This document shows positions 2,942 to 46,580 of a stretch of 64,000 nt of DNA, one piece after another (positions within the stretch are counted from its first letter, which is position 1; every line of letters begins with the position of its first letter). This DNA comes from an uncultured Gammaproteobacteria bacterium (GTDB taxonomy: Bacteria > Patescibacteriota > Patescibacteriia > JAHIZJ01). Location: positions 61,972-125,971 of the forward strand of contig CAZQLY010000004.1 in assembly GCA_964594455.1 (NCBI GenBank), written 5' to 3'. The translations under genes were made by a program, and so were the position numbers. The notes under the pieces are model-generated. The model saw nothing but the letters and a program-made list of their open reading frames with translations. It did not search any database and had not been told where the DNA came from.

Positions 2942-3175
2942 TTATTCTACTTACAGAATAACGTTTTTTAAATATGTAGTAAAGTAATTATAAGCACGTA
3001 AACCTTGTCAACTCGTGGGGGGTCCAGCCCGCTTCGCCGAAGCTTAGCGAGGCAAGGAGGGAAACCTGAGCGCCATAATATATGGTAATTAGTTGCTTTG
3101 TTAATGAGAGAAAATTTTACCCCCGGAGCTTTTGGTCCTTTTGGCTACAAAAGGACATAAAAATATGTAAAAAAA

Positions 3176-3196
3176 GTCTAGCCTTGTCGGCTAGAC
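3176..3196 (-). terminator. rho-independent terminator of the 3191..5245 gene
   Basis: Perfect hairpin gtctagcc-ttgtc-ggctagac followed by a T-run on the minus strand. Confidence 0.5.
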
Positions 3197-5245
3197 ATCC
3201 TCCTGATCACTCTCCTCATCCTCGAGTTCTGGAATCAAAGGAGCGGTAAATGCAATCTTCCCGTCACGAATTTCAAGGCCGAAACCCATCCTCCTGAGAT
3301 CAGCGGCATGGGATCGAATACCTGCCACGTGTTGTTGGCACCACTGAAGTGAGCCGGGTTGCGGCGTAACAGCGGCCTCATCGACATCCGACGAGATTGC
3401 TGGCGCTAAGGCTTCAGATACCGCAGCATCTTCCACTCCAGTCACACCGGAATCCGACCCACCAGAAGCTGGGGAAGGCTCTCCTGGAGAATCTGGACCA
3501 GCAACCGGTGCTTCCGTACCACCTACCCGCATCTTATCTACTGCGCCTTTGGGCCCACCATCAACCTCAGGTGTACCAGACAAGGCCGGCGGAACAGGTG
3601 GAGTGGAGGGACTTGCCGAAGCAGCAGGATCGTCAGGCTTACCAGCTGGGCCAGCTGGAGCCTTTGTCTCTCCAGGCCCTCTCTGGATGTAGCCAGACCC
3701 AACATCCTTGAACTGGATACTGCGTACCACGAACCGGCTAGATCTACTACCAGGAATCCTCTCAGCCCGAATCACAACCTTGGCAAAGACCAGGCTCTGC
3801 ACCCTGTTATGAGCATCTTGAGGCTTTCTAATCCCAGGCTTGTCCTTCAACCAGCTGGCCAGAGCATCAACAACCAGGTCTTGCTCTTTGAGAGCTGGAA
3901 AAAGCTCGAGCAACATACGATAGGTGTCGGCTTGCTGAGCTGAAAGCTCCACGGGTTGGCTGATCACGGGCAATGCCTTATATTCAGACGGGTCAAACAA
4001 CTTTACACCATCAGGCAAGGTCAGGCTGGTTGATGCGTCATCATCTTCACCGCCTTGACTGCCCTGACGAGTGTCGTCTCCAGTGCTCGGACCGGCCGAA
4101 GGCTCTGCAGGAGCTCTCCTGTCCTCGTCTTTTGAACCAGCGGGACGAGAATCAGACTTGCGTGCGAAAGGTACAGGATTCTTCTCCAAGAACTTGCGCA
4201 CTCTATCAGCCGCCGCATCTATGTCTCCATCAAAGGCCTCCAACCCAACAACCAGCTCCTGATAGGCAAGTTCTTCGTAGCAGACAACGATCACCTGATG
4301 TCTTTCACCCCGAACCTCGATTTTGCCCGCTCTGGGACTTGCCAAACGACGGATAATCCCAGGTTGAATTGACTCTACCAGGCCACGGCCGCTCAGCCCG
4401 TTCAAGCGCGAGGCCACCCTTCTGGTCCAGAAAAGGAATCGGTCATCCGACGCTCTAGGGGCAACGACCTCAGCTGTTCCCTCTTCTTGGATTGAGAAGT
4501 CGGGCGGATTACTCCTCAGCTGACCATTCAGTTGTCTGGTCAGAGGAGATATCCTCATTGTCCTCTTGCCCGGCTTGACCTGAAACTTGGCCAGTATTCC
4601 TCGGCCGAAGCAGGTAACTTCAGTATGGTCATCCATACTCTGGATTACCGGGTCCTTGGGTTCCTGAGGGACTGAACGTTGTATGATCTCCGGTCCCTCG
4701 ACTTCACCGACGATGGTAATACTGCTCAGCCAACTCTGCATACCTATGACCATCGCCTGGTCTTCCGGAGACACTTCTTGCGTCCCCGGCGCATCCTTCA
4801 TTACAGCACTGCCACTCATATTGGATCCCTCCTCCCACGGCTCACTGTAGATTGCCGAAGACGCATTGCGGTATAAGCCGCTTAGACAGAAATGTTCACC
4901 TGCTAATGCCAGTGTCAAATCCCAAACCGATGTTCCTCGATCTGGAATTATTCTGAATCGACGGATCGTCTCGTACCCCAACAACACCCCCTGAACAAAG
5001 CCACGCCCTTCAGTGAAACACAGGGTGGCTGCATCAATCGACGGTCTTTGCTGAAAGCCGTCAATTGTTTCGAGAAAATCTACGTTTGGGTACGACCCAA
5101 GCAACTGGACCACTTTTTTGAGAACACGTTCGTCAAGGTTGGCCCCGTCTAGCATATCACCTCCGTGAGTTATTAAAACGTGGACCAACCGATTGTACGG
5201 TTTATGATTGCATATATGAAAAGAACAGAAATCCCTCCTGTTCAA
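3191..5245 (-). CDS. large hypothetical protein (684 aa) with a Pro/Ala/Gly-rich segment; markedly GC-richer than its flanks
   Basis: Long uninterrupted ORF. Rho-independent terminator hairpin at the stop (gtctagcc...ggctagac followed by a T-run). I recognise no domain. Confidence 0.55.
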   Translation of the reverse strand: MNRRDFCSFHICNHKPYNRLVHVLITHGGDMLDGANLDERVLKKVVQLLGSYPNVDFLETIDGFQQRPSIDAATLCFTEGRGFVQGVLLGYETIRRFRIIPDRGTSVWDLTLALAGEHFCLSGLYRNASSAIYSEPWEEGSNMSGSAVMKDAPGTQEVSPEDQAMVIGMQSWLSSITIVGEVEGPEIIQRSVPQEPKDPVIQSMDDHTEVTCFGRGILAKFQVKPGKRTMRISPLTRQLNGQLRSNPPDFSIQEEGTAEVVAPRASDDRFLFWTRRVASRLNGLSGRGLVESIQPGIIRRLASPRAGKIEVRGERHQVIVVCYEELAYQELVVGLEAFDGDIDAAADRVRKFLEKNPVPFARKSDSRPAGSKDEDRRAPAEPSAGPSTGDDTRQGSQGGEDDDASTSLTLPDGVKLFDPSEYKALPVISQPVELSAQQADTYRMLLELFPALKEQDLVVDALASWLKDKPGIRKPQDAHNRVQSLVFAKVVIRAERIPGSRSSRFVVRSIQFKDVGSGYIQRGPGETKAPAGPAGKPDDPAASASPSTPPVPPALSGTPEVDGGPKGAVDKMRVGGTEAPVAGPDSPGEPSPASGGSDSGVTGVEDAAVSEALAPAISSDVDEAAVTPQPGSLQWCQQHVAGIRSHAADLRRMGFGLEIRDGKIAFTAPLIPELEDEESDQEDV

Positions 5246-6151: not shown

Positions 6152-6447
6152 CTAGACCGTGGCGGTTGCGGGTTGGACCGGGTAGAACTGGCCGATCTCG
6201 TGGCCCTGCTGGCAGATGTCGTCACCGTCGCCGATCTGCGAGTGGCAGATGGAGCAACGGCTGCCACCTTCCTGCTGACACTTGACGACTTCCTTTATCC
6301 GGTTCAACCATCCCTCGCCGGTGGTCCAGCAATACGTATGGCCGACCTGGTGGCCTCTGGCGCAGACGCCGCTGGTGATCTCGGTGTTGCAGATGTCGCA
6401 ATGTCTTCCGGCCGTGCACGCACATACTTCAGTATGACCCATACTCA
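6152..6447 (-). CDS. Cys/His-rich small protein with an internal tandem duplication; putative metal binder
   Basis: RBS aggggggttgatc-ATG. 14 Cys and 7 His in 98 aa. Two copies of CxxC...C..GHxxG[HQ]xY. Terminator downstream. GC-rich. Confidence 0.5.
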
Positions 6448-15431: not shown

Positions 15432-15785
15432 TTATTCTTCCATTCCATTGACAAGGGTCATCATCTCATCATAATGTTTCTTAATGACTTCTTGACTACG
15501 GTATTGCTGGGAAAAATCTTTCAAGGCATCCATTACTTTCATGATCGACTCTTTAGTCGGATTATCAAAATCACCACCAACTTTCTTGAAGGAGTTCTTA
15601 ACCATGATTTCAATGTTCGCACGAGTAAGTTTATAAGCTGCTCGCTCGGGCAAACTTTCTGTAATATCTTTTAATTCTTCTCGAGCCGCCTCTTCATGAG
15701 CCTCGACAAAACAAGTTAATAATGCCCTACGTACATCTAGGGCGGTATAGGGTTTTTCTGAGTCTACTCCATAGATAATTGGCAT
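15432..15785 (-). CDS. hypothetical protein
   Basis: 117-aa ORF in a compact minus-strand arrangement. Confidence 0.5.
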   Translation of the reverse strand: MPIIYGVDSEKPYTALDVRRALLTCFVEAHEEAAREELKDITESLPERAAYKLTRANIEIMVKNSFKKVGGDFDNPTKESIMKVMDALKDFSQQYRSQEVIKKHYDEMMTLVNGMEE

Positions 15786-15831
15786 GGTTAAAGAAATTTT
15801 AATTATTTTCCCCTTGTTATTGCCTCATTGG

Positions 15832-15908
15832 TGGTCGGGGTGGTGGGACTTGAACCCACGACCTCAGCGACCCGAACGCTGCGCGCTAGCCAACTGCGCC
15901 ACACCCCG
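15832..15908 (-). tRNA. tRNA-Pro (anticodon CGG), CCA encoded
   Basis: A cloverleaf can be drawn: acceptor CGGGGTG/CACCCCG, D arm GCGC-AGTTGGCTA-GCGC, anticodon loop UUCGGGU, T arm GTGGG-TTCAAGT-CCCAC, then ACCA. Confidence 0.9.
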
Positions 15909-16151
15909 TTATTTGAATAAATTATCTAAAAATTCCCGACCCTTTCCTGTTTTCAAAAACCTTTCTCTTCTTATAGCCTTAAGTTTACAATAATAGATCT
16001 CAGTATATACCACCTTAAATGGACGATGCCCTCTAGTCCATTTATTACTACCTCTATTATGCTCTAAAACTCGTTGCGCCACTGGCTTTTCAGTTAGTCC
16101 AACATATCTTTTTCTGGACTTTAGGCTTATAAGAACATATACCGTAAACAT
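15909..16151 (-). CDS. GIY-YIG nuclease family protein
   Basis: YVLISLKSRKRYVGLTEKPVAQRVLEHNRG...WTRGHRPFKVVYTEIY...RRERFLK matches the GIY-YIG core. It abuts the tRNA-Pro 5' end. Confidence 0.8.
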   Translation of the reverse strand: MFTVYVLISLKSRKRYVGLTEKPVAQRVLEHNRGSNKWTRGHRPFKVVYTEIYYCKLKAIRRERFLKTGKGREFLDNLFK

Positions 16152-16196
16152 GCTTTTTTTCTAGCCCCTGCCACAGGCGGGTCCGCCTTTAGCGGA

Positions 16197-16213
16197 AACT
16201 GCGCCACACCCCG
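16197..16213. repeat. 17-bp direct repeat of the tRNA-Pro 5' end (aactgcgccacaccccg), second copy
   Basis: Identical to 15892-15908. Together they flank the GIY-YIG gene. A third degenerate copy lies at about 16301-16315. Confidence 0.7.
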
Positions 16214-16509
16214 ATTAATTAATGATAGCTATTTTGGTACAAACTTACCATCCAGAGAACAGCACTTAGCCAACTTTTCTGTCTGACCACCGAAGCTTTG
16301 TGCAGGTGGTCGCCATACCCCGTACCACATTAATATACCTCTATTTTAGCAGATTTTCAAGCGGTGGATAAATGGTGGATTGACAGGTACTAATTTTGGA
16401 GTTAAAATTCCCCGCTCAGGAAAGAGCGGTTTACGTCCAGAACAAGGAATAGTTCCTTCATAGCTTGAACACACAGCTGAGTTAACTGCACCGAAGGGAA
16501 GTGATTGCC

Positions 16510-17007
16510 ATGACAAACCCCATCAGAAAAGTTGTAGAACTGATGGACCTGGATCGCCAGCCCAAGCAGTGGGAGATTGAGAGGGCCAATAAGAACGTTC
16601 AGTCGTTCTACATAGTCTTCTCGGTTTTCACGGGCCTGATGATCCTGATGTACTGGCTTGAGGCTTTGCGCTACTGGCCATTCCTCAAGCCACTCCACTC
16701 AGATGTCTGGATTGTCCCTTTTGTCGGCTTCAGCATGTACTCGTTCTTGTTGGCGATGTATATCTCTAGCAAGGAAGTCACACGGTGGTGTCGATTGAAG
16801 CGGACGACCCGGCGCGGCGGACGCTGGGTAGCGATATGGTGGAGCACCTTCATGGCAATCCTCCTGCTCTCGATGTTGATTGAATGCATCAAGATGCCTC
16901 GCTATCTGGCCGGACAAACTTTCATCGTTACTATTGCCTTCTTTGGCAGTCAGACGATGAAAAATCTCTTCGTCAAACGCATGATGAATAACCCCAACCC
17001 GCAGTAA
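16510..17007 (+). CDS. 4-TM membrane protein, hypothetical
   Basis: Hydrophobic helices. Two terminator hairpins at 17010-17100. GC-rich. Confidence 0.5.
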   Translation: MTNPIRKVVELMDLDRQPKQWEIERANKNVQSFYIVFSVFTGLMILMYWLEALRYWPFLKPLHSDVWIVPFVGFSMYSFLLAMYISSKEVTRWCRLKRTTRRGGRWVAIWWSTFMAILLLSMLIECIKMPRYLAGQTFIVTIAFFGSQTMKNLFVKRMMNNPNPQ

Positions 17008-17099: not shown

Positions 17100-18290
17100 T
17101 CAGGCTACTCTGTTATTCCCTTCAGAAAAGCCATCGCTCTCCCATTGGAGACGGATAACCTCGGAACCGAAGAGAATCTCAGAAGCGATCTGCCGCAGCA
17201 CCTGGTAGACCTCGTCTTGATCGTCGCTTGCACAATCGGTTGAACAGTAACCGGCCGCTGTCACCATGATTTGCTTGGGGTCCTGATCGTTCCAGATCTT
17301 CAGGTGGTGCAGTAAGCGATCTAGCTCAGTCGAATCTTCCAGGCCGCTTTGCTCCAGGATCTCGCTGAGGATCAGCCATTCACCGACCAGCTCAACCAGC
17401 TTATGGCAATGCAGCTGCCAGAAAGCCTGTTTGGCTCTCTGAGTCGTAGTAGCAGCAATCCAGAGCAGTGCCAGATAAACTGGGTCCTGCCCATGCCGCT
17501 TAATCCAATCAGGCATCTGGCGCGTCAACTCCTCAGCCTTGAGCACTCTGGCAATCGGCGGCTTGCTTCCCCAACCCTCCAGAATCCCCACCAGCCTCTC
17601 ATGCTGCTTGGGATCGCTTGGAATATCAAAGGCGTAAGCTACGTCCGCAAGCTCCTTCCAGCCACCCACCATTTCAGCAATATTGCTTAGCGGGTTGCTG
17701 TGCTCGGGCCAAGGAATCGTTTGTTGATCCTCGACCTCCTGATCAGTCGCTGAGAACCGGCTGCTTGGATCGAGATCCCTTACGAGTCGGGCACTCCTGA
17801 AATGAGCTACCGAAGAAGGTGGAATGGTCTGGCCACCGGAGGTGCTGCCTGTTCCCGGCTTCCTTACCAGAGATTGGCGCTCGTGACTGCTTACTCCACC
17901 GTCCGGTCCATAGAACCGCTGGTAGTAGTGAACTGCCCGGTTAACCAATAGCTGGAAAAAAGCTGGTTCAATCGGTCTAGGAACGAAGCCGTTGGCCCCG
18001 CATTTCGAAGCAGCTTGCCGGTAGCTTTCGAACTCGTTCGGATCATTGACTTCGCCCACCAGATAGATCATGACGATTCTCAGGTTGGGCATTCTTCTGA
18101 TTTCCGAGACCAGCCTTAAACAGTCCGGGTCGCTGTTCTCGATGAAAATCGCCGTCGGGATAACACCTTCGGTCACTTCGAAGACCTCGATCGAGCAAGT
18201 GGTCGAGTAGATCACTTCGTGCCCGATAAGAAGACTACGGTAAACTTCATGCCTGTTCACATCCGAGTCAAAGACCAACATCAGTGACAT
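17100..18290 (-). CDS. hypothetical protein with an N-terminal receiver (CheY-like)-type domain
   Basis: RBS gaggagg. The N-terminus MSLMLVFDSD...IFIENSDPD...RIVMIYLVGE is REC-like. The C-terminal ~270 aa are unknown. GC-rich. Confidence 0.5.
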   Translation of the reverse strand: MSLMLVFDSDVNRHEVYRSLLIGHEVIYSTTCSIEVFEVTEGVIPTAIFIENSDPDCLRLVSEIRRMPNLRIVMIYLVGEVNDPNEFESYRQAASKCGANGFVPRPIEPAFFQLLVNRAVHYYQRFYGPDGGVSSHERQSLVRKPGTGSTSGGQTIPPSSVAHFRSARLVRDLDPSSRFSATDQEVEDQQTIPWPEHSNPLSNIAEMVGGWKELADVAYAFDIPSDPKQHERLVGILEGWGSKPPIARVLKAEELTRQMPDWIKRHGQDPVYLALLWIAATTTQRAKQAFWQLHCHKLVELVGEWLILSEILEQSGLEDSTELDRLLHHLKIWNDQDPKQIMVTAAGYCSTDCASDDQDEVYQVLRQIASEILFGSEVIRLQWESDGFSEGNNRVA

Positions 18291-18707
18291 AGCATACCTC
18301 CTCTGCTGACTCAAATAAAAAGAGCCTCAAAGGAGGCGTCTGATATGGGCCATTCCTTGACCCAGAAGCTGTGGCGAAATTACCCGCAAGTTAATGCCGG
18401 TTACGCTACTGGCTCCCGATAGTCCGTTCTCCCGAGCTTATTCCAAGCTATTTGAGAGAAAAGCGTCCAAATTACAGACTATCGATCAGCGCCTCATTAA
18501 CACATCCTGGCGTTTCCAGAATGGTTCAGCGGGATTGTAGCACTAGACCAGTGGTTTGTCAAGGGGTTATTGTATTATTTCAATTGACTTAAAAATAACC
18601 TTTTGATTTCTTATCTTTGTAACCATTCCCTCCGACTACTGAACGACGGTAGAACCGCGGTATTGAGCGGAAAGTCCAATTTCTGCTTCCGTGAAGTAGC
18701 CCTGTAG

Positions 18708-22587: not shown

Positions 22588-24309
22588 TTATCTCGCTGCG
22601 AAGAAGTGTCCGGTGGCAATTTTTACGCCAGTCTGTACGTTGGCTGGAAAGGCTAAGAACTCATGATAAATCTGAGCACCATCTTCACGCAATATTCTCA
22701 CTAAAGCTTGGTCGCCCGATCGCACTGCTACTACCCACTCATCTCGGCCATTATAATTAAAGTCTCCACCGGCCACGCTAACCCCGCCCCGGAAGTCAGG
22801 ATGGAATACAAAATATCCCGGATGCTTCAAACCTGTGCTGCCATCTTCACGTCGACCGAACATTCTGACATGTGGTCCGCCCCTAGTTTCCGGTCCGGTC
22901 AATATTTCATACTGACCATCACCATTCCAATCCAACGTGCCAAAGCTCACGCCGCCTCTGAAATCCTGCTGATAGGCAAAGAAGCCTAATATTCTTTCCT
23001 GAAATCTTCCATCAATAATATTAAACATGCGAACGTGCGGTCCCCCGCTATTGACCGAAGGAACAGTTAGCAGTTCATCCTTACCCATACCGTCAACGTT
23101 TGCTACTGTGATGCTTACACCTCCTCGGAGCTGAGGGCTGTAAGCAAAAAAGTTTTCGATCACCGGAGTATATTTTCCGTTCCGATAACCAAAGGTACGA
23201 ATATTTGGACCACCGTTGGAAGCTGGGGCTGTAACTATTTCCGCGCCCTGCCGGCCATCTAATTCTCCTAAGGCAACGTTTACTCCGCCAGTAAACCCAT
23301 CGTCATAAGCCAAGAAGCTATTTATTAAAATACCCTGGTAATTAAAAACTCTAATCTCTGGGATGCGTCCAGGGCCAGGACCTACGACTATTTCATCAAT
23401 GCCGTCATTCCCCAGATCACCCACCGCAACATTTACTCCTCCACGGAACGCTTCTTCATAGGCAAAAAACTGTGATAATAATTCTCCCTCTTTGTTGAAT
23501 ACTCTGATCTGGGGTCCTCCGCCCTGGTTTGCCGCCGCTACCACGTAGGTTTCTTGCAGCAATATTTGTTCTCCTCCTTCCGCGGTGCACTCACGACTTT
23601 CACCGGGTTTATACTCTTCTGTTCCACAGGAATTTTGGTCGGTGCATTCTCTGGTTTGTTGACCTTGGCTGCATTCTAACCAATCAGTACAAGTCCAATT
23701 CTCTTCACAGATATCTTGATTTTCTTCACAAGACTGGCTCTCAGACGGCTTATCTTGATAAGTACCGCAAGCGTTCAAGTCAACACAGGTTCGAGTTTGC
23801 TCCCCATCTATGCATTCGGTCCAAGTAGAACAAGACCAGCTTTCAAAACAGGCTGTTGTTTTTGCTGCCACGTTTGATAACAACGATTCATTGTCTTCGT
23901 CATCATATGTTTTGATGGCAAAATAATATGTAGTTTTGGGATTCAGTCCTGTGATCAAAAATGTTTCAGTAGAATTAGCTGACTTTGGTGTGGGAGGGTT
24001 TTGAACAACTGTGGCTTGACTCCAATTATTATTGGTAATGGAAAAGGTGGCGTAACGGATATCATAACGCACTGCTTGGCCAATATAGCTGTCATCTCCT
24101 GGAGCAGTCCAAGACATTGTCACAGAGTTTGAAGCATCCGCGGCTAAAACAGAAGGGAAAGAAACTGCCGCCGTTGTTACCACATTACCCGCAAAGACAA
24201 TTACCAACATTTTCAAAAACACCCAAAGCATTCCCATAAATAAAGGATAAGCAACTAATCTACTGGTAATGGTTTTGGTAGAAGTGGCCGTCGGAATATA
24301 CATAATCAT
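22588..24309 (-). CDS. surface protein: TM anchor, FN3 domain, two Cys-rich modules, FG-GAP-like beta-propeller repeats
   Basis: Repeats GDxxGDGxxEIxxGPGxGGGPxIRxF. Cys module CxxxWxCxxWxxCxxGxQTRxCxDxNxCG. 4-bp overlap with the upstream giant gene. Confidence 0.8.
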   Translation of the reverse strand: MIMYIPTATSTKTITSRLVAYPLFMGMLWVFLKMLVIVFAGNVVTTAAVSFPSVLAADASNSVTMSWTAPGDDSYIGQAVRYDIRYATFSITNNNWSQATVVQNPPTPKSANSTETFLITGLNPKTTYYFAIKTYDDEDNESLLSNVAAKTTACFESWSCSTWTECIDGEQTRTCVDLNACGTYQDKPSESQSCEENQDICEENWTCTDWLECSQGQQTRECTDQNSCGTEEYKPGESRECTAEGGEQILLQETYVVAAANQGGGPQIRVFNKEGELLSQFFAYEEAFRGGVNVAVGDLGNDGIDEIVVGPGPGRIPEIRVFNYQGILINSFLAYDDGFTGGVNVALGELDGRQGAEIVTAPASNGGPNIRTFGYRNGKYTPVIENFFAYSPQLRGGVSITVANVDGMGKDELLTVPSVNSGGPHVRMFNIIDGRFQERILGFFAYQQDFRGGVSFGTLDWNGDGQYEILTGPETRGGPHVRMFGRREDGSTGLKHPGYFVFHPDFRGGVSVAGGDFNYNGRDEWVVAVRSGDQALVRILREDGAQIYHEFLAFPANVQTGVKIATGHFFAAR

Positions 24310-27300
24310 AGTGTTTCTAGATCGGTTATTCGTCCCGGGGGTGTCGAATCACAGCTTTGTATTTCGTCCGGTTTGTTGGAGTCAGCACCGCAATTATTTT
24401 GGTCAGAGCACTGCCTGGTCTGATAGCTGTCAACACAAATAGACCATTCAGTACATTGCCATTCTGGAGTACAATCACTAATCCCGTCCATAACCGTGAT
24501 AGTTATCGAATCAGTATCAATACCTTCATAATCATCCGTAACAGTAAAGACGATATCGGTATATACGCCTGACTGTTCAGTGTCGGGCTGCCAAGAAAAT
24601 GATCCCGTTCTATCACCATTATCAATAAATGCTGCGCCTTCGGGCAGATTATCTGCCGTTAAAACTAAGGTGTCTGCTACATCATCGTCTGTGGCAATAA
24701 TAGTAAACTCCAAACTGTCCATCTCATGAATGTTTTTGTCCTCAGCGTCAACCAGGCTTGGCTGTCTATTGGTATTAGCAATAGTGATAGTGATAAATTC
24801 AGCGTCAGTAGTAAGACTATCAGTCACACTGAAACTAACAAAAGGATAATTGGCAGCTTGGTCATAATCCGGCGTCCAAGAAAATGTCGCTGTCTTATCA
24901 CCATGGTCCTGAAGGTCTGAGCCGGCCGGACCATTATACATAGTGAATACCAGCGTATCGCTATCGCTGTCAGTGGCGCTAAGATCAAACGTTAAAAGCT
25001 CTCCTTCTGATCCCTCTTGTGATCCAATAGGGGCGAGGACTGGGCGGAAACTAAACTCTAAGGCTGTTGAATACTCGGAGGGTGTGGTTTCAAAATCGGT
25101 CCCCTCTTCGACAGCTGAAACTCTATACTTCCAAGTACCTGTGGTTGGCTCATCCAGATAAGAGATGATTGAGCCATCAGTTTGATCGACCGTATCCACC
25201 AAGATTTCTTCTTCTGTATTAACATTCTTTCTGTAAACATTATAATAATTTATGTCATCTTCAGAATTTGGCGTCCATTCGACTCTGACATAATCACCAT
25301 TATGCCTGGTAGCTGTAGGCTGGGCTGGACTATTGGGCCGATTCTGATCCAAGGCCTGGATTAATTCTGCTACTGTCATGCCCGAGTGGCCAATTATATA
25401 AATCGGCGCCATATCTATATCAACATCAAAACTACTGCCTGAACCGACATCAATCGGGTTTCCTTCGATATCAATGACATCAACATTATCTGTATTAACA
25501 GGCACTCCTTCCAAACCCGCCCCGCTGTATTCCTGGTCATAATTAAAGATTGTGGCAATAGGCACGGTTTGATCTGGAAGATTCAAATCAGGAGCCTCAA
25601 AAATAAATGCTCGACTATAATCGTCAAGGATCCCATTGGTTCTCAGGTCTTCGGTTTCTACACGTCGAATATACTCGGAATTTTCCAGCAAAGTCGTCAT
25701 CTGAGCGTAAGCAGTGGCAGTAATCATGGGAGTATTGTCGTATTCAAAAAAGCTATAACCTAAATACGTCGGTGCGTAGGTATTGAATAGTCCAAAGAAA
25801 AATCCTTTATCAATCCCATTAGCTATTAAATATAAGTGAACACGAATACTATCTGATGTAACCTTCCGAGCCATGGGTATTGATCCACTCATATTCTTCC
25901 ATTGCTGCCAATCTGAATCGCCTACCCAGCCAGGCACACCATTAACCATGGCTGTATCAGGATAAATTCTTGGATGGTTGTAGCCAAACTCGCTATTCCA
26001 GTTTGGCTTTGTATTCTCGCCATCCGGTGAAGAATCATCCAAACGCCCCATCCAGGTGTTTATTCCATCATCAATATCGGTCCGGCTCGTTCCTGAACCA
26101 TCTTCGGGTATTTGACGAAATCCATGTTGGAATCGATCATAATGATGTGGTGCAAAAATATCAAACAACCCATATCCAGAACCATGGATACCATCATCAT
26201 ATGTCAGCATTTCATTTAACCAATCATCACCACGGCTAGGGCCAACAACTTTGTTTTCAATCGTATCTTGGTTGGCGTGGATAGCCTCTTCGGCCCGCCA
26301 AAGATAAGCATAATATTCTTCCGCTTCTAAGGTGTTTGGTTCATTCAATACTTCATAAGCATTTATATCATCACCGTAATGTTCAACTGCAGTCCCGACA
26401 AATTGCTGCCAAGTTCCCGCTGGCCCCTCTTCTCTACCGATCACCGGCATCAAAGAAATATGATGGTTGGCTGCTGCCTCTACATAATCATCTAAGTAAG
26501 GGTCTTCATCAATGCCGTCTTCAATATTATCTTTAACAATCATCGGGAATTCTCGGGAGTACTTTATGCCCAGATCACGGGCTATTTCTAAATACTCATT
26601 GAGCGGACGGTTAGCAGAAAAATAGTAATGATCATAGGTACTGCTGATATCCAACAAACCTAACGATACATGGTTTCCAAAAAATGAATCAGTTATATCC
26701 TGATCCCGATAAGGAGATTTCTCCGCAATTCCCAGGACTAAAAACTCTTTATCCAGCATCTTTGATTCATCGGGTGTCCAGAGTTCATAAGCCAGGGTAA
26801 ACCACCCCTTGGATTTTAATGGCGCTGCCGCGGCTATCAGGCTGGATAAATCTTGGGTTATAGTCTGACGGTTAGAAGCATCATGTGAAACCAATACCTC
26901 TCCCTGGTCCAAAGCCGTATTTGTATCAAAATAATCCCCTAAGCTGTCATACAGCTGCCATTTTATTTTCGAATCGTTATCTAACGAGGTTTTTTCCAAA
27001 ATTTCTAACTGGGTATATATATTCTCACCATCATCCAACCAATAAAAATTACCGTTTTTGGGATTCGCGCCTTCTGCATCGGTAGAAGTGTAGGCAAATA
27101 GTTCTTGCTGAGAAGTTTGATAGATATAATCAGTTGGTGCGGGATTACTCTGGTTGGAAGCATACTCAAACTGTATAGCGTCAACTAAAAGAACTCCCAT
27201 GCCCCAACACTGGGGCTGGAGAGTACTACTAACTAATAATTCCGGATGAAATATCTCCCCAGCCTGGATCATGGGGTCGCTAGTGGTTGCAACATACACT

Positions 27301-28010
27301 CGTTTCCAGCCCTCAGCTGGTGTAACACTAAATTGACCAGACCCTTCAGTATAGTTATCCCAGATATCGTTATAAATCCTCAAACGAACTCCAATAGCTG
27401 TGTTGGAGCAAGAATCATTGTCATCAACTTGTCCTCCAACCTCTGTGGCCTTTAGCCAAACAGAAAAAACATATCGGCCAGTTTCTGGTGCTGTAATATA
27501 ATTGAGATCAATAGAGGCTCCTCCGGCATTACGATTATCAAATTTTAAACTGTATTCTCCATCGTAAGAATCTTCATCAGTTAGACTTGTCATAACTAGG
27601 CCTCGAACCGGATCGTCAGCAAAAATATCACCACTACCAGGGTTGTAATAGTCATAATGAAGCCTCTGAGTAACGCTGATGGAATCGTAGACCCCATTAA
27701 CGCCAAACTCAAAACTCGAGTCCTCGGAAATCAAATTTCTAGTCTGATACTCACCGCATAATTCACCCTCAGACACGTCACCACGATAAGTGCAATGATT
27801 CTCATAGGTCTCCGAATAAGGATATGAAACGCCTTTTACCTCTCCTGAGGCACCCGTCGAATCATTTAGGTTCAATGAATAAAAAAAACCGACCAGCAAA
27901 ACCAGTCCGAGATATAGCACGATTAAAGCGTTTGTAGCCGATTTGCTCAGCCACACCCACAGTTCGTTCTTCTGTTTTACTTTCTTTTTCTTGGAACGCA
28001 TTGCGCTCAA
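24306..28010 (-). CDS. giant (1234 aa) membrane-anchored surface glycoside hydrolase (clan GH-A/GH5-like) with putative-Ig (He_PIG-like) repeats and a C-terminal Cys-rich module
   Basis: N-terminal TM helix. AYEVLNEPN contains the GH5 acid/base NEP motif. Tandem Ig-like repeats. C-terminal CTPEWQCTEWSICVDSYQTRQCSDQNNCG. Confidence 0.7.
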   Translation of the reverse strand: MSAMRSKKKKVKQKNELWVWLSKSATNALIVLYLGLVLLVGFFYSLNLNDSTGASGEVKGVSYPYSETYENHCTYRGDVSEGELCGEYQTRNLISEDSSFEFGVNGVYDSISVTQRLHYDYYNPGSGDIFADDPVRGLVMTSLTDEDSYDGEYSLKFDNRNAGGASIDLNYITAPETGRYVFSVWLKATEVGGQVDDNDSCSNTAIGVRLRIYNDIWDNYTEGSGQFSVTPAEGWKRVYVATTSDPMIQAGEIFHPELLVSSTLQPQCWGMGVLLVDAIQFEYASNQSNPAPTDYIYQTSQQELFAYTSTDAEGANPKNGNFYWLDDGENIYTQLEILEKTSLDNDSKIKWQLYDSLGDYFDTNTALDQGEVLVSHDASNRQTITQDLSSLIAAAAPLKSKGWFTLAYELWTPDESKMLDKEFLVLGIAEKSPYRDQDITDSFFGNHVSLGLLDISSTYDHYYFSANRPLNEYLEIARDLGIKYSREFPMIVKDNIEDGIDEDPYLDDYVEAAANHHISLMPVIGREEGPAGTWQQFVGTAVEHYGDDINAYEVLNEPNTLEAEEYYAYLWRAEEAIHANQDTIENKVVGPSRGDDWLNEMLTYDDGIHGSGYGLFDIFAPHHYDRFQHGFRQIPEDGSGTSRTDIDDGINTWMGRLDDSSPDGENTKPNWNSEFGYNHPRIYPDTAMVNGVPGWVGDSDWQQWKNMSGSIPMARKVTSDSIRVHLYLIANGIDKGFFFGLFNTYAPTYLGYSFFEYDNTPMITATAYAQMTTLLENSEYIRRVETEDLRTNGILDDYSRAFIFEAPDLNLPDQTVPIATIFNYDQEYSGAGLEGVPVNTDNVDVIDIEGNPIDVGSGSSFDVDIDMAPIYIIGHSGMTVAELIQALDQNRPNSPAQPTATRHNGDYVRVEWTPNSEDDINYYNVYRKNVNTEEEILVDTVDQTDGSIISYLDEPTTGTWKYRVSAVEEGTDFETTPSEYSTALEFSFRPVLAPIGSQEGSEGELLTFDLSATDSDSDTLVFTMYNGPAGSDLQDHGDKTATFSWTPDYDQAANYPFVSFSVTDSLTTDAEFITITIANTNRQPSLVDAEDKNIHEMDSLEFTIIATDDDVADTLVLTADNLPEGAAFIDNGDRTGSFSWQPDTEQSGVYTDIVFTVTDDYEGIDTDSITITVMDGISDCTPEWQCTEWSICVDSYQTRQCSDQNNCGADSNKPDEIQSCDSTPPGRITDLETL

Positions 28011-45805: not shown

Positions 45806-45945
45806 TACTGATTCTACTCATTAATAATGAAAGTGTGGAAAATGCGGCTTGACATTGTAAACACTATATGATATAGTCTACTCGGATGACTTCCGTCTGA
45901 ACTGTGGCGTTTATCGCCGCGTTCCCGCAAGGGATAGGACGGGAG
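45806..45945 (+). ncRNA. candidate small RNA with its own promoter and intrinsic terminator
   Basis: TTGACA, then 17 nt, then TATAGT. The downstream transcript can fold into a three-way junction: P1 cuuccguc/gacgggag, P2 ggcg-uuuau-cgcc, P3 uccc-gcaa-ggga. A U-tract follows. Convergent with the DUF3800 gene. Confidence 0.3.
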
Positions 45946-45947
45946 TT

Positions 45948-46580
45948 TTATTTTGGCCAAACTTGAATATTCATTTCCCTATGTGCAATCATCCTATGAT
46001 ACTTTTCATGATTCCTTTTCTTTTTTAGACAATATCTATTAATCATACCCGCAATATAATCAGCAAGTTGTAGTAAATTATTACTATTTGATCTTTGCAT
46101 TTTCACTTTTCCAATACATTTTTTACCTTCATTGTTTATTTTTCTTCTTAAATAAGTGGCTAGCTGATTTCTGAATTCTTGATTACCGCTCTTGTCAATA
46201 ACAACCGTAGCTTTCTCCAGATCATCGTGAGCATTTTGGAAAACTAGATTACATGCATATTTATAAAAAGAATGCTTGTCTTTAAAGCCGTCTCCCCATA
46301 ATTTTTTTGGATCTTTATTAATAACAATTCCGTAATAAAAAAATTCATAAGGAGACACCGCTTGTAAAAAAGCACTCCTTACTCTGTTAGAGTTCCTTTT
46401 GAAATGGAATTCTTCATTATTATCCCAACCTAATTCATGTTTTAGCAGAGCAATTCTCCGATCGCAGGCTTGGGCTTCCTCATTATCAGAAAACAACACT
46501 AAAGCAACAGTAAAATACCTGCTTGATCCTTCTTTTATTTTTAAACCGGAATCACCGGATTCATCAATAAATACCAACAT
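45948..46580 (-). CDS. DUF3800 family protein
   Basis: The N-terminus MLVFIDESGDSG is the DUF3800 signature. Confidence 0.7.
   Translation of the reverse strand: MLVFIDESGDSGLKIKEGSSRYFTVALVLFSDNEEAQACDRRIALLKHELGWDNNEEFHFKRNSNRVRSAFLQAVSPYEFFYYGIVINKDPKKLWGDGFKDKHSFYKYACNLVFQNAHDDLEKATVVIDKSGNQEFRNQLATYLRRKINNEGKKCIGKVKMQRSNSNNLLQLADYIAGMINRYCLKKKRNHEKYHRMIAHREMNIQVWPK

Follow-up and report, generated by a model that had tools for sequence, protein, structure and literature searches.

A probable tRNA-resident selfish cassette of a GIY-YIG nuclease gene and a double-hairpin module at a bacterial tRNA-Pro gene

Phage T4 carries within a tRNA cluster the free-standing GIY-YIG homing gene SegB, whose product cuts DNA lacking the gene, whereupon repair copies the gene together with its flanks (PMC2330249). 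We analyzed a locus that resembles this arrangement in having a GIY-YIG nuclease gene among tRNA genes. It lies in a 64-kb stretch of contig CAZQLY010000004.1 (hereafter the window, to which all coordinates refer unless a related locus is named) and comprises, read on the minus strand, partial copies of a tRNA-Pro gene, a 30-nt double-hairpin module, a small nuclease gene, and an intact tRNA-Pro gene. Judged by its MurA relatives, at 92 to 96%, the host belongs to the Patescibacteria. SegB is a phage gene and has neither a hairpin module nor partial tRNA copies, whereas the window cassette is cellular and has both. Enzymes of the SegB type belong to the I-TevI branch of the GIY-YIG superfamily and have DNA-binding domains; the window protein, in contrast, is 80 aa long, consists of the catalytic domain only, and belongs to the UPF0213/Slx1 branch as judged from profile searches. 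We think it probable, though well short of settled, that the region is a tRNA-resident selfish cassette of nuclease gene plus hairpin, which has spread in a homing-like manner with its target tRNA gene being rebuilt.

Several other systems share one or more traits with this locus. Elements that integrate into tRNA genes bring with them a substitute segment of the tRNA, and their att sites flank them as direct repeats. The cassette is like them in its tRNA direct repeats, in the regeneration of the tRNA, and in leaving the host a working tRNA, but it has no integrase, measures ~0.3 kb, uses the tRNA 5' end in most clades, enters at many insertion points, and bears a hairpin at the junction. In Allomyces (fungal mitochondria), a mobile endonuclease open reading frame (ORF) in atp6 brings a duplicate of the end of its host gene, and the displaced piece stays behind as a fragment; that case concerns the 3' end of a mitochondrial protein gene, whereas ours concerns the 5' end of a bacterial tRNA gene and adds a junction hairpin. 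The hairpin-ended miniature inverted-repeat transposable elements (MITEs) of the IS200/IS605 group and the REP/RAYT systems rely on HUH (Y1) enzymes that form covalent intermediates. Our module is similar to both in its hairpin ends, its lack of target duplication, the short T-rich motif on its 5' side, and its many nonautonomous copies; unlike in those systems, the only linked gene encodes a GIY-YIG hydrolase and both hairpins lie on one side of that gene.

Among short repeats, the double-hairpin elements (DHEs) of fungal mitochondria are described as short G+C-rich units of two stem-loops that are thought to be mobile by an unknown mechanism and that occur also in RNA genes (PMC10085805, PMC3787672). 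The bacterial module is likewise a short G+C-rich double stem-loop found also within RNA genes. DHEs differ in being mitochondrial, and neither a sharp target of the TT type, nor in-frame colonization of protein genes, nor a linked nuclease gene is reported for them. Compensatory stem changes in DHEs were reportedly noted by Paquin et al. in 2000. Rickettsia palindromic elements (RPEs) are palindromic repeats that have spread through a reduced genome and lie inside protein genes with the reading frame kept (PMC1779305). RPEs are 100 to 150 bp long and have no associated enzyme gene, whereas the module is 30 bp (10 codons) long, with a defined target and a frame preference (one reading in 65 of 92 cases). 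None of the systems compared joins a domain-only Slx1-like nuclease, a TT-targeting 30-bp double hairpin, and the rebuilding of a tRNA gene. A full-text literature search, which did not cover all journals, found no published description of a tRNA-resident GIY-YIG and hairpin cassette; the family is apparently undescribed, and there is a real chance that the relationship between enzyme and element is new in kind.

The intact working copy of tRNA-Pro(CGG), with an encoded CCA, occupies 15832 to 15908 on the minus strand (ARAGORN; Rfam RF00005, 64.6 bits). Immediately upstream on the same strand is the stand-alone GIY-YIG nuclease gene of 80 codons (15909 to 16151; Pfam PF01541, E=9.3e-13), the single ORF at these coordinates, whose TAA stop codon (15909 to 15911) touches tRNA base 1 (15908) with a 0-nt gap. 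An earlier note, made by a model from the letters alone, had described this direct adjacency, and ARAGORN, Rfam, and Pfam agree with it. The same note had pointed out a 17-nt repeat of the tRNA 5' end, which the repeat search bears out: the 17-mer AACTGCGCCACACCCCG is present at 15892 to 15908 and again, at 100% identity, at 16197 to 16213, where the BLAST map also places an exact copy of tRNA-Pro bases 1 to 17 (pseudo-copy 2, minus strand). We estimate the chance of an exact 17-mer recurring within ~300 nt at ~2e-8.

Between pseudo-copy 2 and the nuclease gene, the earlier account had missed two features that alter the interpretation of the repeat. The first is the 30-nt module at 16167 to 16196 (minus strand TCCGCTAAAGGCGGA-CCCGCCTGTGGCAGG), recognized by a pattern search and by its match to the family consensus. 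It consists of two adjoining, GC-rich 15-nt hairpins (16196 to 16167), each slightly decayed, with a single imperfect pair, and interrupts the tRNA copy at D-loop position 17/18, directly after TT (a TT/G site, the slash marking the insertion point). The second is a patch at 16161 to 16166 (minus strand) that equals tRNA-Pro bases 18 to 23 (GGCTAG) and resumes the tRNA in register after the module; a 9-nt A-rich linker, AAAAAAAGC (16152 to 16160, minus strand), then separates this patch from the ATG. Since the 17-nt copy is followed by the hairpin and then by bases 18 to 23, the upstream repeat is a split tRNA pseudo-copy. The direct repeats are thus partial tRNA copies and not the target-site duplication proposed at first, a proposal that also fails across related loci, where the repeat varies from 8 to 54 nt, the hairpin-split pseudo-tRNA continues beyond the hairpin, and fragment and intact tRNA can differ in lineage.

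The layout recurs widely. A contig scan with one genome per species yielded at least 599 pattern-matched stretches, 554 of these 599 encoding a relative of the nuclease; the best 80 of these, labeled L001 onward and forming the set of related loci used here, hold 86 GIY-YIG copies. The common order is tRNA fragment, hairpin, GIY-YIG gene, intact tRNA. For 48 of the 86 copies, a same-strand tRNA starts between -110 and +60 nt from the stop codon, often overlapping it, against 10 of 788 (1.3%) for other ORFs in the same loci; for 16 further copies a tRNA ends no more than 100 nt upstream. In 31 of 47 loci, the 200 nt upstream of the nuclease gene contain an exact repeat, 10 nt or longer, of the tRNA start, compared with 0/47 for both controls. 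The tRNAs are of at least 11 identities (those listed being Asn, Gln, Pro, Ala, Val, Met, Ile, Ser, Phe, Tyr, Arg, and Cys), and the repeated tRNA piece is 8 to 54 nt long, depending on the locus. In nearly all such loci the fragment is followed by a hairpin pair with the consensus TCCGCC-NNN-GGCGGA / CCAGCC-NNN-GGCTGG, after which the tRNA resumes in register for 6 to 14 nt and gives way to an AT-rich linker of 5 to 60 nt, at the same place as the 9-nt linker of the window, and then to the ATG. The 17/18 insertion site in tRNA-Pro is common to the window, L006, L012, and L037. The layout thus extends over many tRNA genes in hundreds of genomes, and the initial suggestion that a small selfish cassette is associated with the 5' end of the tRNA, of which a functional copy is retained, is supported. 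Some close relatives of the nuclease come from bins labeled as archaea (Woesearchaeota, L010) or as phyla far from Patescibacteria (Gammaproteobacteria, L003, L012, and L016; Planctomycetia, L001 and L018); these labels could reflect either wide transfer of the cassette or misbinned contigs.

The module behaves as an insertion element in its own right. The 80 loci contain 70 modules, of which 54 are precise 30-nt insertions, the tRNA being continuous once the module is removed, and at these precise junctions no target duplication was found. Within tRNAs, insertions are concentrated after positions 8, 12, 17, 21, 28 to 30, 34, 45, and 54 to 55 and in the T-loop of long-arm tRNAs. GCC/GGC is fixed in the stems, while both partners vary in the outer three pairs of each stem. 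Of the 12 stem pairs, 7 show changes in both partners; the set was selected by complementarity, so that the share of paired cells carries no independent weight. One module variant was sought in metagenomes by a scan not anchored on the nuclease, which returned 126 occurrences in at least 120 contigs. Only 4 of the 126 have a nuclease gene within 30 nt downstream, all 4 of them in a tRNA context, and 11 are in tRNA-like sequence. tRNA genes make up well under 1% of such genomes by our estimate, so the 9% of modules in tRNA-like sequence represents a strong enrichment, yet the module is not tRNA specific. The target logo from this nuclease-independent scan shows T in 93% of cases at -2 and in 79% at -1, followed by a base other than T at +1, giving TT/VA.

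In most of the metagenome occurrences, 92 of 126, the module is read through by an open frame of 150 codons or more. These frames are genuine genes, and essential ones: in metagenome loci (L089 to L208), the module falls within Pfam domains of a Mur ligase, UvrD, MurA, and a class I tRNA synthetase, and modules also lie in DnaG-, UvrC-, and AlaRS-like ORFs (L024, 1248 to 1277; L036, 1024 to 1053; L068, 879 to ~940). An in-frame module adds 10 codons after TT, and in 65 of these 92 cases the reading is S-A-x-G-G-P-A-x-G-W. The module has the traits of MITE-like palindromic repeats, being short, noncoding by itself, dispersed in many copies, folded into hairpins, and subject to compensatory changes; a classical MITE, with terminal inverted repeats and a target-site duplication, was rejected because the insertions are precise and duplicate no target bases. 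It also shows the hairpin ends, the TT target, and the absence of target duplication that mark insertions of the IS200/IS605 type. A hairpin scar built from flanking bases was considered and discarded, as the hairpins keep their sequence irrespective of the flank. Among protein genes, the nuclease gene alone consistently adjoins a module, at a distance of 8 to 68 nt. In the window, the hairpin-pair pattern has 2 matches against 0.07 expected, and no tandem hairpin pair of this motif other than the module of the tRNA-Pro locus occurs in the 64 kb; the second match (6353 to 6376) is weak (GCCTCTGGCGCAGACGCCGCTGGT, with one mismatch) and is presumed to be due to chance.

The nuclease sequence places the protein in a defined corner of the GIY-YIG superfamily. 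It scores 48.7 bits against PF01541 (cutoff 22.6), with residues 2 to 69 aligned to profile positions 2 to 71 of 78. Y5, Y16, G18, R27, H31, E51, and E63 occur without exception in 25 family members, the window protein among them; we take the conserved Y, G, R, H, and E residues to have the catalytic roles usual in the superfamily. All the invariant residues are present, and the window gene therefore looks intact. In profile searches, the closest solved relatives are UPF0213 proteins (1zg2, UPF0213 BH0048, E=7e-14; 1ywl, E=1e-11), followed among solved structures by Slx1 chains (E=1.6e-6 to 1.9e-4), which is the ground for its assignment to the UPF0213/Slx1 branch. It is not Slx1 proper, since at 80 aa it comprises the nuclease domain alone, against ~300 aa with a C-terminal zinc finger, nor a homing endonuclease of the I-TevI type (TIGR01453, 19 bits against a cutoff of 56, and nothing beyond the catalytic domain). 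If the homing-like reading is right, a minimal, domain-only nuclease of this kind would probably recognize DNA structure rather than sequence. A phage origin found no support, with 3 relatives in 2.9 million viral contigs and no PHROG match; the family is cellular and essentially absent from viral contigs. PADLOC gave a single, marginal match (E=0.0064).

Comparison of the related loci revealed several signs of mobile, selfish behavior. Nuclease clades track both tRNA identity and hairpin variant: the Gln clade has stems TGCGCC/CTCGCC, the Ile clade has the single hairpin GTCGCCTAAGGCGAC, and the Cys clade has a mirrored layout of intact tRNA-Cys, linker, GIY-YIG gene, and a hairpin-split 3' fragment. 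The mirrored pseudo-tRNA-Cys consists of bases 20 to 36, the single hairpin CCCGCCTTAGGCGGG, and bases 57 to 75, and was found in L011, L027, L038, L044, L047, L049, L052, and L065, mostly in Ignavibacteria- or Melioribacter-type genomes. Identical tandem units are present in L018 and L027, and decayed nuclease genes are present in L053, L047, and L055. In L053 the GIY-YIG gene beside tRNA-Ile (3001 to 3243) has an internal stop while its fragment and hairpin are intact, and this locus is a decaying copy of the cassette. In L015, L024, L056, and L084, the fragment belongs to one lineage of an isoacceptor and the intact tRNA to another, the stems differing in a compensatory way, a situation that local duplication and decay cannot produce. 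L006 and L012, whose nuclease DNA is 92.5% identical and whose left flank is shared, differ by one extra unit in L006. This extra unit is the sole polymorphism that we saw; no close syntenic relatives of the window locus were found. To look for recent transposition, 107 nuclease genes were compared all against all; none had a near-identical copy in a different context, near identity being limited to duplicates within a genome and to the L006/L012 pair.

Units with fragment and hairpin and without a nuclease gene occur in L006, L025, L037, and L063. Repeats of this kind in relatives had been named beforehand as a sign against a cassette, and taken literally they exist; they look like derivatives of the same system, however, and not like a conserved tRNA array. 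Separately, we noted exact tandem arrays of 62 to 137 nt in which hairpin-split tRNA pieces are joined to tRNA downstream flank with no nuclease gene (L050, 3372 to 3740; L075, 3351 to 3576; L080, 3321 to 3512; L063, 2340 to 2635); some of these contigs contain runs of N, and assembly effects are possible.

Upstream of pseudo-copy 2, the window retains the remains of a third tRNA copy (minus strand). Its proximal part (16311 to 16322) matches tRNA-Pro bases 1 to 12 at 92% identity in the repeat search, with one mismatch (G7 to A), and its distal part (16267 to 16275) is an exact copy of bases 14 to 22, AGTTGGCTA, according to the BLAST map and the sequence. As two ordered matches to one tRNA, these are very unlikely to have arisen by chance. 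The degenerate copy tcgccataccccgta, which had been placed at 16301 to 16315, does exist, but it lies 9 nt away, at 16310 to 16324. A 35-nt insertion (16276 to 16310) separates the two parts at about position 12/13 and holds a 6-bp hairpin (ACCACC...GGTGGT); we read it from its sequence as a putative decayed or variant hairpin element. The 12/13 site is also occupied by canonical modules in L003, L004, L005, and L014. In the 53-nt spacer between the two pseudo-copies (16214 to 16266, minus strand), neither the BLAST map nor a tblastn search covering the whole window detected tRNA or GIY-YIG similarity. It may be the remnant of an older unit after loss of its nuclease gene; nuclease-less units in L006 and L037 have 38 to 66 nt at the equivalent position.

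A sigma-70-like promoter, TTGAAA / 17 nt / TATATT, lies at 16332 to 16360 on the minus strand (promoter scan, 10/12 consensus matches). It is the sole promoter-like site on that strand of 15700 to 16520, with none between it and the intact tRNA, and its spacing is that expected for a tRNA gene starting at 16322. We suggest that it is probably the original tRNA-Pro promoter and now drives the whole array. Its position just upstream of the third copy fits the idea that this copy marks the original gene start and that the array would form one transcript. In 15700 to 16550, a permissive Rfam search returned the tRNA as the sole RNA match, and folding of 16152 to 16330 as one strand gave no overall structure signal (z = -0.31).

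For the role of the nuclease as break-maker, the repair route, cotranscription, and which tRNA copy is the incoming one, we infer the following scheme from these arrangements. The cassette would have the hairpin at one end and tRNA sequence at the other and would enter a tRNA gene at a TT/R site. The nuclease would break the tRNA gene at or near this site, and repair would copy from a cassette-bearing template, with tRNA sequence serving as the homology. The hairpin end would then lie against the old 5' piece that had been displaced, and tRNA sequence from the opposite end of the cassette would restore a full gene. The host would retain a functional tRNA, with the hairpin plugging the old copy. 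Expression of the nuclease gene would depend on the tRNA promoter, and the RNase P cut at tRNA base 1 would separate mRNA from tRNA. Repeated rounds would leave a stack of pseudo-copies with the oldest nearest the promoter, and use of the short tRNA patch as homology could explain how a hairpin alone is copied into a tRNA. Of the models that accommodate both the 5' type and the mirrored Cys type, we regard this one as the simplest. A tRNA intron was rejected on account of the complete tRNA downstream, and involvement of the nearby reverse transcriptase was also dropped; no such enzyme was noticed in related loci, although no search was aimed at one there.

A number of observations weigh against this scheme. 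The intact tRNA keeps the same TT/GG as the split copy, and therefore destruction of the target by insertion fails to account for immunity. Nor does the model readily predict the in-register stretch of tRNA that precedes the nuclease gene after the hairpin, or the presence, in some cassettes, of different hairpin variants on the two sides. The 80-aa protein is a bare catalytic domain without a DNA-binding domain, and since it also falls outside the I-TevI branch, sequence-specific cleavage of a tRNA gene is not a given. Most module copies are in protein genes, where tRNA homology cannot account for insertion. The window hairpin is slightly decayed and the sole one in 64 kb; this copy may be old or inactive. 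Finally, a comparison for empty sites, as the earlier note had proposed, found no empty site or presence/absence polymorphism for the window genome: relatives of the 117-aa neighbor protein (46 to 63% identical) are in other contexts or on short contigs without tRNA-Pro synteny, and an exact 30-mer from the tRNA 3' flank had 0 metagenome matches.

The alternative that survives best overlaps with the homing-like scheme and is compatible with much of the same evidence. It holds that the GIY-YIG protein is a trans-acting mobilizer of the 30-bp double hairpins, the tRNA-resident copy being the autonomous master, an explanation that we find possible and distinctly less likely. Enzyme and element would then be related as RAYT is to REP, or as the TnpA of IS200/IS605 is to its hairpin MITEs. 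The partial tRNA copies would then be by-products of breaks at hairpins in tRNA genes that were repaired by unequal recombination, a corollary we hold equally tentatively. Modules do far outnumber nuclease genes (4 of 126 occurrences in at least 120 contigs are beside one), their duplication-free insertion at a sharp TT/VA target is typical of transposition, no protein gene other than that of the nuclease consistently neighbors a module (8 to 68 nt off), hairpin variants follow nuclease clades, and the family is kin to the structure-specific Slx1 nucleases. GIY-YIG enzymes, however, hydrolyze DNA and are not known to join strands, so that insertion would need host ligation or repair; several hairpin variants in one contig (L024 and L036) imply loose specificity; and the finding of nuclease genes only at tRNA sites is left unexplained by the mobilizer itself. 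Seen in this light, the 80-aa protein might be a mobilizing enzyme of a new type, in effect a GIY-YIG "transposase" or hairpin-specific nuclease, whose substrates are the 30-bp hairpins at TT/VA in tRNA and protein genes, which we doubt somewhat. It would likewise follow, with no greater confidence, that the master copy survives only by rebuilding the tRNA that it disrupts and that such elements extend across Patescibacteria and neighboring phyla.

Far less probable is site-specific integration of the att type, with the recombinase gene lying elsewhere and the nuclease gene carried as cargo. The layout is formally alike, with a displaced tRNA piece, an element, a rebuilt tRNA, and tRNA direct repeats, and the mirrored tRNA-Cys form has its displaced 3' fragment downstream, as in islands. 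Against this, the cassette is ~0.3 kb long and holds the nuclease ORF and no integrase, none of the neighboring ORFs scanned against Pfam is an integrase, the insertion points are many (8, 12, 17, 21, 28, 34, 45, and 54) rather than one att core, and the tRNA 5' end is used here, compared with the 3' end in islands. Serial tandem duplication and decay of tRNA-Pro, with an unrelated GIY-YIG gene caught between copies by chance, had been offered as the alternative to a cassette; we give it a similarly slim chance and consider it largely refuted. Tandem tRNA arrays are common in bacteria, and the window does have three tRNA-derived pieces in a row whose decay increases toward the promoter. The order of fragment, hairpin, nuclease, and tRNA is nevertheless found at 11 or more tRNA identities against the control values of 1.3% and 0/47, the hairpin is a precise insertion with a conserved sequence, and fragment and intact tRNA are of different lineages in several loci; the tandem units and decayed nuclease genes also speak against it. 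A classical transposon insertion with a 17-bp target-site duplication, for which the exact 17-nt direct repeat bracketing the nuclease gene is the argument, is scarcely credible given a repeat length that ranges from 8 to 54 nt between loci instead of being fixed, an upstream repeat followed by a hairpin and then by more tRNA in register, two ends without terminal inverted repeats, the absence of a transposase, and solo modules that insert without any duplication.

If the homing-like reading is correct, the cassettes would make up a class of selfish element that is widespread among the small genomes of Patescibacteria and of other phyla, and they would account for the many partial tRNA genes and "GIY-YIG next to tRNA" annotations in such genomes. 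The 10 residues S-A-x-G-G-P-A-x-G-W would be an addition inside essential proteins such as MurA, Mur ligases, UvrD, DnaG, and tRNA synthetases, and the in-frame hairpins would matter for annotation, for protein alignments, and for the question of how streamlined genomes tolerate parasites. The stack of pseudo-copies would then be a readable record of successive invasions of a tRNA gene.

Other features of the window are recorded here for completeness. A c-di-GMP-II riboswitch (18386 to 18505, minus strand, 60.2 bits) lies just upstream of a 404-aa ORF (17100 to 18314, minus strand) that has no Pfam match, and directly upstream of the riboswitch, on the same strand, is the reverse transcriptase ORF (PF00078; 18708 to 19787). 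The window encodes several very large surface-type ORFs with FG-GAP, Ig-like, and fn3 domains, for example, that at 24306 to 28010 (1234 aa). GC content per kb ranges from 0.28 to 0.54 across positions 1 to 64000, and the most AT-rich part (GC 0.28) holds a match to the DUF3800-IX RNA (45888 to 45951, plus strand) that, at 56.3 bits, is above the gathering score.

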